Positions 3,024 through 4,169 of a stretch of 4,169 nucleotides of DNA are shown one piece after another. Made by a program: the position numbers and the translations under genes. The stretch comes from a virus (Duplodnaviria > Heunggongvirae > Uroviricota > Caudoviricetes). The stretch lies in IMG/VR virus record IMGVR_UViG_2541047428_000007. One strand, written 5' to 3'. Each line of letters starts with the position of its first letter. The first letter of the stretch is position 1. The notes under the pieces are model-generated. The model ran no database searches and had not been told where the DNA came from. It saw only the letters and a program-made list of their open reading frames with translations.

Positions 3024-3581
3024 ATGACCACTATTACCAAAGATCGACTGCTGACAATCCAGCATTGGCGCGAAACATACGGACCGGGTAGCAACGTTGT
3101 GCTTCCAGCAGAAGAAGCGGAAGAGCTGGCACGGATTGCGCTGGCATCACTGGCAGCAGTATCGGATGAACGAGCAGCCTATGAATTATTTATGGAGAAG
3201 CGTTTCGGAGAATCTGTAGATCGCCGCAGAGCAAAAAATGGCGATAGAGATTACATGGCATGGGATATGGCGCTTGGCTGGATTATCTGGTGTCACCGCG
3301 CCGCCATGCTTCAGGCTGGAAACTTTCGGGAAAATAAGGGTTCGTCAACCAATAATTTTCGGATAATCTCGGAAACGTCAACCAACTCTCCGGCAATCCC
3401 TGATGAGGTGTTGTCCGCAATCCTGAAGGTCGCCAGGCTTCGTGCAGATTTCGATGCTTCTGAAGTGGACAGGCGAGGTATCGGTAGTTGTCTGGATGAG
3501 GCCGAGCAAGAACTTATCGTTACCATTAACGAATACGCCAGTCAGATCGCAGTAGAAGCGACACAGGGGGAGAACCAATGA
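3024..3581 (+). CDS. Hypothetical phage protein (185 aa)
   Basis: ATG 3024 lies 2 nt after the upstream stop, with AAGGTGA 3010-3016 as RBS. Stop TGA 3579-3581. Contains a short low-complexity S/T/N stretch (GSSTNNFRIISETSTNSP) encoded by an imperfect DNA repeat (CGTCAACCAA at 3343-3352 and 3376-3385). Confidence 0.7.
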   Translation: MTTITKDRLLTIQHWRETYGPGSNVVLPAEEAEELARIALASLAAVSDERAAYELFMEKRFGESVDRRRAKNGDRDYMAWDMALGWIIWCHRAAMLQAGNFRENKGSSTNNFRIISETSTNSPAIPDEVLSAILKVARLRADFDASEVDRRGIGSCLDEAEQELIVTINEYASQIAVEATQGENQ

Positions 3582-3655
3582 GCCGGCCAGATGCATTTGC
3601 AGGCGTTGCTATAGCTATTGCTTTTCTAGTATATGTTATTTGTCGGTGGGGGTAA
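3578..3655 (+). CDS. Candidate micro-ORF encoding a 25-aa hydrophobic peptide (MSRPDAFAGVAIAIAFLVYVICRWG)
   Basis: ATG 3578 overlaps the upstream stop (ATGA) and is preceded by AGGGGGA (3565-3571, 6-nt spacer). One predicted TM-like stretch. Stop TAA 3653-3655. Too short for the ORF track. Confidence 0.35.
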   Translation: MSRPDAFAGVAIAIAFLVYVICRWG

Positions 3656-3690
3656 AAACGTTCGCCGGGATTCACACCAAGGGAGGGAAT

Positions 3691-3795
3691 ATGTCGGATG
3701 ATATTTCACTGGTAATGGAAGGCGCTCTGGCTGTTATTGCTGTTGTGGGTGTTTACTGCCTGGTTGTGTTTTTGATGGAGCGCCTGGGGAACTGA
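3691..3795 (+). CDS. Candidate micro-ORF encoding a 34-aa hydrophobic peptide (MSDDISLVMEGALAVIAVVGVYCLVVFLMERLGN)
   Basis: ATG 3691 preceded by AAGGGAGGG (3679-3687). Single TM-like helix between an acidic N-terminus and a charged C-terminus. Stop TGA 3793-3795. Too short for the ORF track. Confidence 0.45.
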   Translation: MSDDISLVMEGALAVIAVVGVYCLVVFLMERLGN

Positions 3796-3805
3796 ATTCA
3801 TTCCG

Positions 3806-3821
3806 TATGGGAATTCCCATA
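3806..3821. promoter_or_regulatory. 16-bp perfect palindrome TATGGGAATTCCCATA, candidate operator for a dimeric DNA-binding protein
   Basis: Read directly from the sequence: positions 3806-3821 are perfectly self-complementary. It sits between the stop of the 34-aa ORF and the putative -35 of the hok-locus promoter. Confidence 0.4.
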
Positions 3822-3835
3822 TCGGGCAAAACGGT

Positions 3836-3863
3836 TTGCTGTAAAGCGAGAGTTAAGTAGAAT
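3836..3863 (+). promoter_or_regulatory. Putative sigma70 promoter for the hok/mok transcript
   Basis: -35-like TTGCTG (3836-3841), 16-nt spacer, -10-like TAGAAT (3858-3863). Sits in the only sizeable non-coding gap, about 175 nt upstream of the hok ATG, consistent with the long leader of hok mRNAs. Sequence-only prediction. Confidence 0.3.
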
Positions 3864-3881
3864 TGCTGCGGGTGCTTGAGG

Positions 3882-3917
3882 CTGTCTGCCTCGGGCATGC
3901 CACCGTAAGGCAGACAG
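3882..3917 (+). promoter_or_regulatory. Stable stem-loop in the hok mRNA leader (10-bp stem, 16-nt loop)
   Basis: CTGTCTGCCT (3882-3891) pairs perfectly with AGGCAGACAG (3908-3917). The loop contains the 8-bp palindrome GGCATGCC (3894-3901). No downstream U-tract, so not a typical intrinsic terminator; more consistent with the folded leaders known for hok-family mRNAs. Confidence 0.4.
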
Positions 3918-3929
3918 AGAAAAGCCCCA

Positions 3930-3995
3930 GTTAACATTACGCGTCCTGCAAGACGCTTAACATTAATCTGAGGCCCAATCTATGCTTCACAAACG
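3930..3995 (-). ncRNA. sok: Putative Sok-like antisense RNA covering the mok translation-initiation region (approximate bounds)
   Basis: By analogy with characterised hok/sok loci, Sok is transcribed antisense across the mok SD/start. A weak candidate promoter on the minus strand is -35 TTGCCT (complement of 4020-4025) and -10 TAACCT (complement of 3997-4002), 17-nt spacer, which would put the TSS near 3990. The -10 is poor and the ends are not determinable from sequence. Confidence 0.2.
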
Positions 3996-4169
3996 TAGGT
4001 TAGCCTCTTACGCGCCGAAAGGCAAGGAGAAGCAGGTTATGAAGCAGCAAAAGGCGATGTTAATCGCCCTGATCGTCATCTGTTTAACCGTCATAGTGAC
4101 GGCACTGGTAACGAGGAAAGACCTCTGCGAGGTACGAATCCGAACCGGCCAGACGGAGGTCGCTGTCTT
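3982..4169 (+). CDS. mok: Mok-like reading frame: in-frame 19-codon N-terminal extension of hok (3' end off-window)
   Basis: ATG 3982 preceded by GAGG (3970-3973) and in frame with hok ATG 4039 (57 nt apart). Extension MLHKRRLASYAPKGKEKQV. As I recall it, E. coli mokC is likewise an in-frame N-terminal extension of hokC. Confidence 0.45.
   Translation, partial: MLHKRRLASYAPKGKEKQVMKQQKAMLIALIVICLTVIVTALVTRKDLCEVRIRTGQTEVAV
4039..4169 (+). CDS. hok: Hok/Gef-family type I toxin (small membrane peptide), 3' end truncated by the window
   Basis: ATG 4039 preceded by AAGGAGA (4024-4030, 8-nt spacer). Translation MKQQKAMLIALIVICLTVIVTALVTRKDLCEVRIRTGQTEVAV matches the Hok/Gef signature (TM helix, then ...RKDLCEV.IRTGQTEVAV) and is essentially identical over the visible part to my recollection of E. 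coli HokD (RelF) and Gef. A full Hok is about 50 aa; 43 codons are in the window. Confidence 0.88.
   Translation, partial: MKQQKAMLIALIVICLTVIVTALVTRKDLCEVRIRTGQTEVAV

Follow-up and report, generated by a model that had tools for sequence, protein, structure and literature searches.

Do two very short, hydrophobic open reading frames (ORFs) that lie just upstream of a hok/sok locus in a prophage of Shiga-toxin-producing Escherichia coli encode genuine peptides and, if so, what kind of peptides are they? The question was raised by a 4,169-nucleotide (nt) stretch of the IMG/VR virus record IMGVR_UViG_2541047428_000007 (Caudoviricetes), which is referred to in its entirety as the window. An earlier note, made from the sequence alone, had pointed to two micro-ORFs of 25 and 34 codons (here ORF1 and ORF2), each with a Shine-Dalgarno (SD) site and a single transmembrane-like helix, of which the first would overlap the stop codon of the preceding gene and neither would resemble Hok. 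These particulars were borne out. Both ORFs and their SD sites are present (Table 1), the ATG of ORF1 overlaps the TGA of an upstream gene of 185 amino acids (aa) as ATGA, and the most hydrophobic 17 residues have a Kyte-Doolittle mean of 2.66 in ORF1 and of 2.95 in ORF2. Neither ORF gave a match to HOK_GEF, even at E ≤ 10, and both are situated immediately before, and outside of, hok/sok, where the sok match begins at position 3870. We consider it probable, if far from assured, that they are two genuine and independently evolving phage micro-genes, each of which would encode a single-pass inner-membrane peptide with an accessory, modulatory role.

The length of an ORF is not significant by itself in this setting, as 67 ORFs of ≥20 aa are present in the window, and the case for coding therefore rests on conservation in related loci. 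Omega (dN/dS) was estimated from substitutions along a minimum spanning tree of the distinct DNAs, using those codons that were not fixed by the search pattern. The ORF1 frame gave an omega of 0.39 (62 distinct DNAs), as against 0.94–1.71 in four other frames, and changes at codon positions 1, 2, and 3 numbered 50, 36, and 105, respectively. For ORF2, omega was 0.38 (35 distinct DNAs; 0.30 over all codons), compared with 0.57–1.55 in the five other frames. Neither family has a stop codon in the proposed frame, and the mean BLOSUM62 score of the replacements was +0.45 for ORF1 and +0.79 for ORF2 in those frames, versus −1.35 to +0.16 in the others. ORF2 was intact in all 24 loci found through ORF1, and ORF1 was full-length in 50 of the 53 loci found through ORF2, the exceptions being two copies that lack the last two residues and one with an early stop. 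Conservation of the reading frame, which the earlier note had proposed as a check, is thus seen in the retention of starts and stops, in an ORF1 indel that is in frame, and in an omega of ~0.4 for both, as opposed to ~0.6–1.9 in all remaining frames apart from one antisense frame of ORF1. All of these indicators agree, and they indicate that both ORFs are protein-coding.

Within a family whose usual form is 27 aa long, with the consensus M-x-W-P-E/D-A-F-x3-G-x12-C-R-W-G, the window's copy of ORF1 is divergent; it carries W3R and is two residues shorter. When seven E. coli loci were aligned, homology began at the ORF1 SD site and ATG behind three different upstream genes, all of them with an ATGA overlap, and the 25-aa and 27-aa forms were found to differ by a 6-nt in-frame indel. 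A degenerate-pattern scan of IMG/VR (at least 120 stretches), together with further loci, gave 130 ORF1 contexts among the matches listed, to which the following counts refer. They comprise at least 39 peptide variants and at least 63 distinct DNAs. The overlap with the upstream stop codon recurs in 129 of the 130 contexts (ATGA in 107, TGATG in 22), and the genes that precede ORF1 have at least six unrelated C-termini, in addition to the window's own. At −16 to −4, 129 contexts have an SD core, which is GGAGG in 114, and this conservation extends over 40 distinct upstream 20-mers; in the window, the site lies within the last codons of the 185-aa gene. With either type of overlap, ORF1 is necessarily in the −1 frame relative to the gene before it; we also considered a programmed −1 frameshift to a C-terminal membrane anchor, but rejected it as no conserved slippery heptamer was seen upstream.

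Searching with the 27-aa form (tblastn) identified 92 phage records, 90 of them with near full-length matches, among them virulent Vequintavirinae (Av-05, TH18), lambdoid phages, and Shiga toxin (Stx) phages, in which ORF1 is near xis/int on the early-left side. The annotated coding sequence before ORF1 terminates 0–3 nt past the first base of the ORF1 start codon in five phage records and one phage-plasmid. ORF1 exactly fills the gap to the next annotated gene in the plasmid and in two Vequintavirinae phages, and in the P1-like plasmid this is an 82-nt gap between annotated genes. Among complete E. coli genomes, ORF1-family DNA was found by BLASTN in 1,616 of 5,426 (~30%), at up to 7 places per genome, and 164 of the places are on plasmids. 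A strict ORF1 pattern, applied to single representatives of 185,579 species, was matched only by E. coli and Shigella flexneri. One of the 92 phage records, PP818812.1 (locus L011), is named "Actinobacillus phage vB_Apl-pPE4", and contains an ORF1 homologue along with a hok locus that is 95% identical to the E. coli one; its recorded Actinobacillus host may deserve a second look.

Both ORFs had been described in the earlier note as unannotated, and this proved to be correct for ORF1 only. ORF1 is unannotated in every RefSeq locus inspected, including that of Sakai, where it fills the gap between ECs_1518 and ECs_5710, and in all five of the phage records that were opened. Pfam, PHROGs, and NCBIfam, like RefSeq, do not contain the family, and the 25-aa variant of the window is absent from a collection of 15 billion proteins. 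Homologues of 27 aa occur sporadically in GenBank as "hypothetical protein" or "bacteriophage protein" (AOM45384.1, ASL59396.1, ETI78407.1); the commonest variant is on 79 contigs, and members include MTWPEAFTTVGIAMAVALVVYSICRWG. These entries belong to the ORF1 family, yet they have not been curated into any family and none has been carried into the RefSeq loci inspected. A fusion of ORF1 to DUF551 was considered and rejected, as the 90% cluster in question holds 121-aa Shigella DUF551 proteins without the peptide sequence; the grouping of DUF551 with the 27-aa entries arose as an artefact of clustering, and could lead automated annotation transfer astray. Of the two ORFs, the more interesting is ORF1, being a divergent copy from a phage micro-gene family that is common but uncurated.

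ORF2, on the other hand, is RefSeq WP_001278460.1, a 105-nt hypothetical protein entry (100% identity between the window ORF and 6292–6396 of locus L001), and the NCBI Prokaryotic Genome Annotation Pipeline annotates it in every RefSeq E. coli locus inspected, with five variant accessions seen. Its cluster contains WP_001278460.1 and WP_001278450.1, and UniRef entries A0A0K4ZJX7 and A0A0J2ETP2. In the Sakai prophage Sp6, the homologue is ECs_5710, which has two differences (V8A and E30D) and lies within the same layout as in the window, namely ORF1, a 35-nt spacer, ORF2, a palindrome, and hok. This ORF was listed as XECs145 by Hücker et al., who detected its translation by ribosome profiling (RIBOseq; Hücker et al., 2017; PMC5597208). 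In lysogeny broth, XECs145 had a RIBOseq value of 346.1 reads per kilobase per million mapped reads (RPKM), versus 79.1 for RNA, with a ribosomal coverage value of 4.35 and a coverage of 0.99. The ribosomal coverage value was 1.14 in brain heart infusion and 0.01 under cold plus osmotic stress. The product was predicted to be located in the inner membrane, and the classifier used in the study called the ORF "real" (PMC5597208). According to these published ribosome data, a homologue of ORF2 is translated in uninduced lysogens, and ribosome occupancy, which the earlier note had named as a further check, has accordingly been seen for XECs145 only. As published, XECs145 begins at a non-canonical start 20 codons further upstream (PMC5597208); because the SD site and ATG are conserved, the 34-aa form is the likely product in preference to the extended one. 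Neither peptide is found in the supplements of "The Cryptic Bacterial Microproteome" (PMC11188072) or of the EDL933 translatome (PMC4765031), and a literature search with the ORF accession numbers and peptide strings returned nothing.

A pattern scan for ORF2 gave 124 matches, which form two subfamilies, A (to which the window belongs; MSDDISL…LGN) and B (…VLVLKCALAIAAVMAIYCLAVVLMDRLSD), with only ~50% amino-acid identity and with different upstream contexts. All of the ORF2 sequence homologues found are from E. coli, and the UniRef clusters are labelled Enterobacteriaceae. In subfamily A, an ATG or GTG start, 4 nt after AGGAGGG or GGGAGGG, is kept in 55 of 55 loci; the likely start of subfamily B is a conserved GTG, 5 nt after AGGAGG or GGGAGG. 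Subfamily B (IMG/VR loci L134–L231; LR597641.1, locus L236 2001–2084) lies directly before hok promoters, usually without ORF1, and is unannotated in phages mEp460_ev081, Tritos, and Evi. An intact ORF1 is found ~35 nt upstream of ORF2 in 47 of 53 subfamily A loci, as against 5 of 66 for subfamily B, and ORF2 directly follows ORF1 in only 24 of the 130 ORF1 contexts. ORF1 and ORF2 are therefore separable modules and not a fixed pair. The earlier reader had missed this separability, as well as the large family of ORF1 across many phage types.

The segment that carries ORF2 has further features of its own. A palindrome of 16–22 bp follows ORF2 after 10–11 nt in 49 of 49 subfamily A loci, and in none of 55 subfamily B loci. 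In locus L004 its arms are perfect (11 + 11 nt), and a 61-nt RNA of the palindrome folds at −18.5 kcal/mol (z = −2.8). We rejected its assignment as an intrinsic terminator, given that neither strand has a U-tract after it or any terminator-like site; it could serve as an RNA 3′ stabilizer or as a protein-binding operator. In most subfamily A loci (L004 and ~40 IMG/VR loci), an 11-nt direct repeat flanks ~170 nt made up of the spacer, ORF2, and the palindrome. Loci with a single repeat (e.g., L011) pass from the ORF1 stop codon straight into the hok promoter region, and because of this direct junction the intervening segment appears to behave as an insertion/deletion cassette. The idea that ORF2 and the palindrome constitute an independently mobile element was rejected, as ORF1 sequence lies upstream in 53 of 53 informative loci (with a premature stop in one of them). 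Since the cassette is never found apart from ORF1, recombination or deletion between the 11-nt repeats is the simpler reading.

Table 1. Positions of ORF1, ORF2, and adjacent features in the window
Feature	Position	Strand	Details
Upstream gene, 185 aa, function unassigned	3024..3581	+	From the ORF list; TGA 3579–3581
ORF1 SD site, GGGGGAG	3566..3572	+	5 nt before ATG
ORF1, 25 codons, MSRPDAFAGVAIAIAFLVYVICRWG	3578..3655	+	ATG 3578, TAA 3653–3655
Direct repeat (11 nt), first copy, GGGTAAAAACG	3650..3660	+	Includes last ORF1 codon and stop
ORF2 SD site, AAGGGAGGG	3679..3687	+	GGAGG core 3682–3686, 4 nt before ATG
ORF2, 34 codons, MSDDISLVMEGALAVIAVVGVYCLVVFLMERLGN	3691..3795	+	ATG 3691, TGA 3793–3795
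Near-perfect palindrome/hairpin, core TATGGGAATTCCCATA (3806–3821)	3803..3825	strand-neutral	Directly after ORF2; EcoRI site at centre
Direct repeat, degraded second copy, GGGCAAAACG	3824..3833	+	From repeat comparison
Putative hok promoter, TTTGCT – 17 nt – TAGAAT	3835..3863	+	Proposed by reading the sequence; start of hok module
hok/sok locus	3870..4169	+	Neighbour, outside the micro-ORFs; Rfam sok 3870–4044; hok coding sequence from 4039, cut by window end

How might such peptides be made, and what might they do? ORF1 would lack its own transcription signals, and its translation would come from ribosomes that terminate on the preceding gene and re-initiate at the overlapping ATG (ATGA/TGATG), helped by the GGAGG site inside the last codons of that gene. 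ORF2, by comparison, would be translated from its own strong SD site. ORF1 has a single hydrophobic stretch of 17–19 residues, and ORF2 an acidic N-terminus followed by one strongly hydrophobic helix of 17–19 residues, for which the Hessa scale gives a clear −3.0. An N-out/C-in topology is proposed for both, because the N-termini are acidic (E/D5 in ORF1; DD…E in ORF2), the 17–19-residue helices are rich in small residues, and an Arg lies near each C-terminus. Most likely, helix faces rich in small residues (G9xxxA13 and A11xxxA15 for ORF1; rich in Ala/Gly for ORF2) would make helix-helix contacts with some membrane protein, either the host's own or one from an incoming phage, and we regard bulk membrane damage by either peptide as less likely. 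For both peptides, membrane insertion, topology, partner binding, and biological role are what we infer, whereas the conserved frames, the SD and stop-start arrangement, the hydrophobic helices, the distribution, and the published ribosome occupancy of the ORF2 homologue are shown.

Enterobacteria possess small single-pass inner-membrane regulators, such as AcrZ, MgtS, MgrB, KdpF, and CydX. ORF1 and ORF2 resemble this class in that both are ≤50 aa, with one predicted transmembrane helix, charged termini, and small-xxx-small motifs, are under purifying selection, and are of a size missed by annotation; start, SD site, and stop are likewise conserved in both. They are unlike AcrZ, MgtS, MgrB, KdpF, and CydX in having no sequence similarity to them, and in being phage-borne, multi-copy, and mosaic instead of core chromosomal. 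Holins and antiholins are encoded in the late lysis cassette by the endolysin and spanin genes, typically have at least 60 aa, and possess dual starts or more than one transmembrane domain. The holin-like modulators suggested in the earlier note do not fit such a description, as ORF1 and ORF2 are at an early position between P and Q and not in a late lysis cassette, encode peptides of only 25 and 34 aa, each having a single helix, and have no PHROG holin match.

Several points weigh against the interpretation of ORF1 and ORF2 as two functional membrane micro-genes. No credible family was found for either peptide in Pfam, PHROGs, NCBIfam, or PADLOC, nor any characterized homologue; Pfam and NCBIfam gave only sub-threshold matches, such as OadG_rel_small at E = 0.022. 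The Hessa-scale sum for ORF1 is −2.1 kcal/mol in the window copy, but ~0 to +1.2 in common variants, which makes the helix only marginally hydrophobic. Because the window's ORF1 lacks two residues as well as the Trp3 that is invariant elsewhere, it could be in decay. Estimates of dN/dS from a minimum spanning tree are crude, and the ORF ends were set in advance by the search patterns. Moreover, the antisense −1 frame of ORF1, which shares its wobble positions with the sense frame, has an omega of 0.32; antisense coding over ORF1 was nevertheless rejected, since the replacements in that frame are non-conservative (BLOSUM62 −0.60) and the ends of the open frame vary by locus. With regard to translation, the ribosome profiling study took only ORFs of at least 30 aa (PMC5597208), so that ORF1 fell outside it; XECs145 as published overlaps the last ~20 nt of ORF1; and its RIBOseq signal could include multi-mapped reads from paralogous prophages.

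The alternative that fares best is that one or both ORFs encode membrane-damaging type I toxins, or phage "kil"-type peptides, that are held in check by antisense RNA or low expression and would kill or arrest the cell on over-production; toxins had been among the suggestions of the earlier note, but we regard this as unlikely. Their small size (<60 aa), single hydrophobic helix, and charged ends do resemble those of type I toxins, they adjoin a bona fide type I system, hok/sok, and there is a weak promoter-like site on the minus strand. An accessory modulator, possible exclusion functions included, is ranked above a toxin because the ORF2 homologue is well translated, ORF1 resides in operons, and neither a terminator nor a conserved antisense promoter is found. 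Specifically, XECs145 ranks with the better-translated of the novel ORFs in Sakai during exponential growth (4.35, RPKM 346), which would be unexpected if it were silenced, and ORF1 is coupled to upstream genes within tightly packed operons, behind its 40 distinct upstream 20-mers, and is not a stand-alone unit with a structured leader. No terminator-like site is present on either strand, up to 7 copies of ORF1 are carried per genome, and no match to a toxin family was obtained in Pfam or NCBIfam. The minus-strand site itself (3656..3628; TTTACC, 17 nt, TATACT) is sigma-70-like at 9 of 12 positions, and lies inside the 3′ end of ORF1, antisense to it. By reading, it is apparently not retained in other ORF1 subfamilies, and it is probably a chance match.

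The comparison with Hok/Gef (PF01848) is of the same tenor. Like Hok, the two peptides are small and prophage-borne, with one N-terminal hydrophobic helix and a predicted targeting to the inner membrane. Unlike Hok, they are about half its length, have neither the C-terminal periplasmic domain nor its conserved Cys, and are accompanied neither by a mok-like frame that overlaps them nor by a Sok-like RNA (the sok match is confined to 3870–4044). The SD site of ORF2, furthermore, is exposed and strong, and its homologue is translated in growing cells.

It is also conceivable, but improbable in our estimation, that ORF2, with or without the palindrome, is tied to hok/sok, either through read-through into the hok promoter that modulates hok/sok on induction, or through contact between the peptide and the Hok helix. 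Hok lies within 700 nt downstream of ORF2, directly after it, in 45 of 49 subfamily A loci and in 48 of 55 subfamily B loci, despite the ~50% identity between A and B, and the subfamily B stop codon is ~30 nt before the hok −10 element. In mEp460_ev081, ORF2-B and hok follow an opposite-strand gene, like a self-contained unit, and because of the orientation of that preceding gene the arrangement suggests that the pair may have its own promoter. However, gene order is generally conserved among lambdoid phages, and this would suffice to account for the linkage. The Hok proteins next to subfamilies A and B are essentially identical, and have not diverged together with ORF2; conserved synteny, or an association that arose repeatedly, appears to describe the linkage better than co-divergence. 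Most hok loci, moreover, lack ORF2-A; hok-like DNA is present at 10,997 places in 4,726 genomes, while the full ORF1-ORF2-hok arrangement is found in only 367 genomes, and none of 79 phage records with hok cover the ORF1-ORF2 part of the query. In two loci (L006 and L007), an IbrB-like gene replaces hok and both ORFs are kept. A reading of ORF2 as a third, protein-coding component of prophage hok loci is less likely than the proposal made below for the ORF1 family.

About as improbable, when taken on its own, is a special case of the modulator model in which the peptides are superinfection-exclusion or anti-defence factors that block DNA entry by other phages, or a membrane-bound host system against them. 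ORF1 relatives do occur in accessory early regions (Stx early-left with xis/int, nin-like, P1-like plasmid, and virulent Vequintavirinae), and the ORF2 homologue is expressed from an uninduced prophage, as is typical of exclusion genes. Against this, PHROGs returned only sub-threshold matches (best E = 0.0065), to families that are unannotated or described just as "membrane protein", and PADLOC returned nothing besides a spurious Cmr5 match (E = 0.027). A function that operates in lysogens alone is also disfavoured by the occurrence of ORF1 in strictly lytic phages, and the exclusion proteins that we know of are larger.

Finally, it is very improbable that the ORFs are incidental to DNA kept as a recombination linker, an RNA structure, or a hok promoter-proximal element, with no functional ORF1 peptide: mosaic junctions do fall exactly on ORF1, with homology that begins from its SD site, the 11-nt repeat around the ORF2 cassette shows recombination here, chance small ORFs are abundant, and one antisense frame of ORF1 has a similarly low omega, but substitutions are concentrated at third codon positions, conservative replacements are confined to the proposed frames, start, stop, and length are kept in the at least 63 distinct ORF1 DNAs with the sole indel between aligned loci in frame, SD sites are conserved behind unrelated upstream genes, and ribosome footprints cover the ORF2 homologue.

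The window as a whole is part of the early-right (nin-like) region of a lambdoid prophage. Its positions 3400–4169 are 100% identical to many O157:H7 and O26 chromosomes among complete E. coli genomes, and no complete genome matches all 4.2 kb from end to end, the best covering 95–96% at 99% identity. The C-terminus of replication protein P is encoded at 2–463 and, according to Pfam, is followed in order by DUF1627, a helix-turn-helix protein, DUF4406, DUF4752, and an Ead/Ea22-like protein. The DUF4752 protein (1816–2133; 105 aa) has a hydrophobic N-terminal segment (…LALLGYFYIMFCSGRWLSLLF…), and is a putative membrane protein of the same early operon. The 185-aa gene before ORF1 had no match in a Pfam search; it matched PHROG 14306, 660, and 60, all of unknown function, and in the locus alignment the homology to other loci stops short of it. 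Stop-start (GTGA/ATGA) or short overlaps are found at nearly all gene junctions (1210–1213, 1524–1527, 1816–1826, 2391–2404, and 3578–3581), and coupling of translation seems to be the rule across this operon and not peculiar to ORF1.

Downstream of ORF2, the sok match (Rfam RF01794) scores 114.9 bits (E = 1.4e-26), and the ORF that starts at 4039 matches PF01848 HOK_GEF with E = 2.1e-20. The segment with the putative hok promoter is common to all hok-linked loci, regardless of their upstream content; it was not called by a consensus promoter scan, as its −35 hexamer matches the consensus at only 3 of 6 positions. In the matching genome, the region continues with hokD, DUF968, RusA, and Q, with Q ~2.3 kb downstream.

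What do these observations mean for the phages and their hosts? Current concepts are unchanged by them, in that two uncharacterized families are added to the known class of small phage membrane proteins. The value of the ORF2 result is mainly corrective, since ORF2 is already annotated and its homologue is known to be translated, and its position next to hok offers a testable link to a classic toxin-antitoxin system. For ORF1 the implications would be broader. If it is expressed, then the ~30% of complete E. coli genomes noted above would carry a membrane peptide that is unreported by the NCBI pipeline in the RefSeq loci inspected, with as many as 7 copies in polylysogenic Shiga-toxin-producing strains. 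Its stop-start coupling behind unrelated genes provides a clean model for the spread of a micro-gene through phage mosaics, and its occurrence in temperate and virulent phages alike suggests a common host target. We would therefore raise, as a tentative proposal that is more doubtful than the coding and membrane assignment itself, that ORF1 belongs to a previously unrecognized and very widespread family of coliphage "hitch-hiker" microproteins, a portable SD-plus-ORF cassette joined by stop-start overlap to unrelated early genes, which might act on one conserved target in the host inner membrane so as to block, for example, superinfection, a membrane-bound defence, or a host process.

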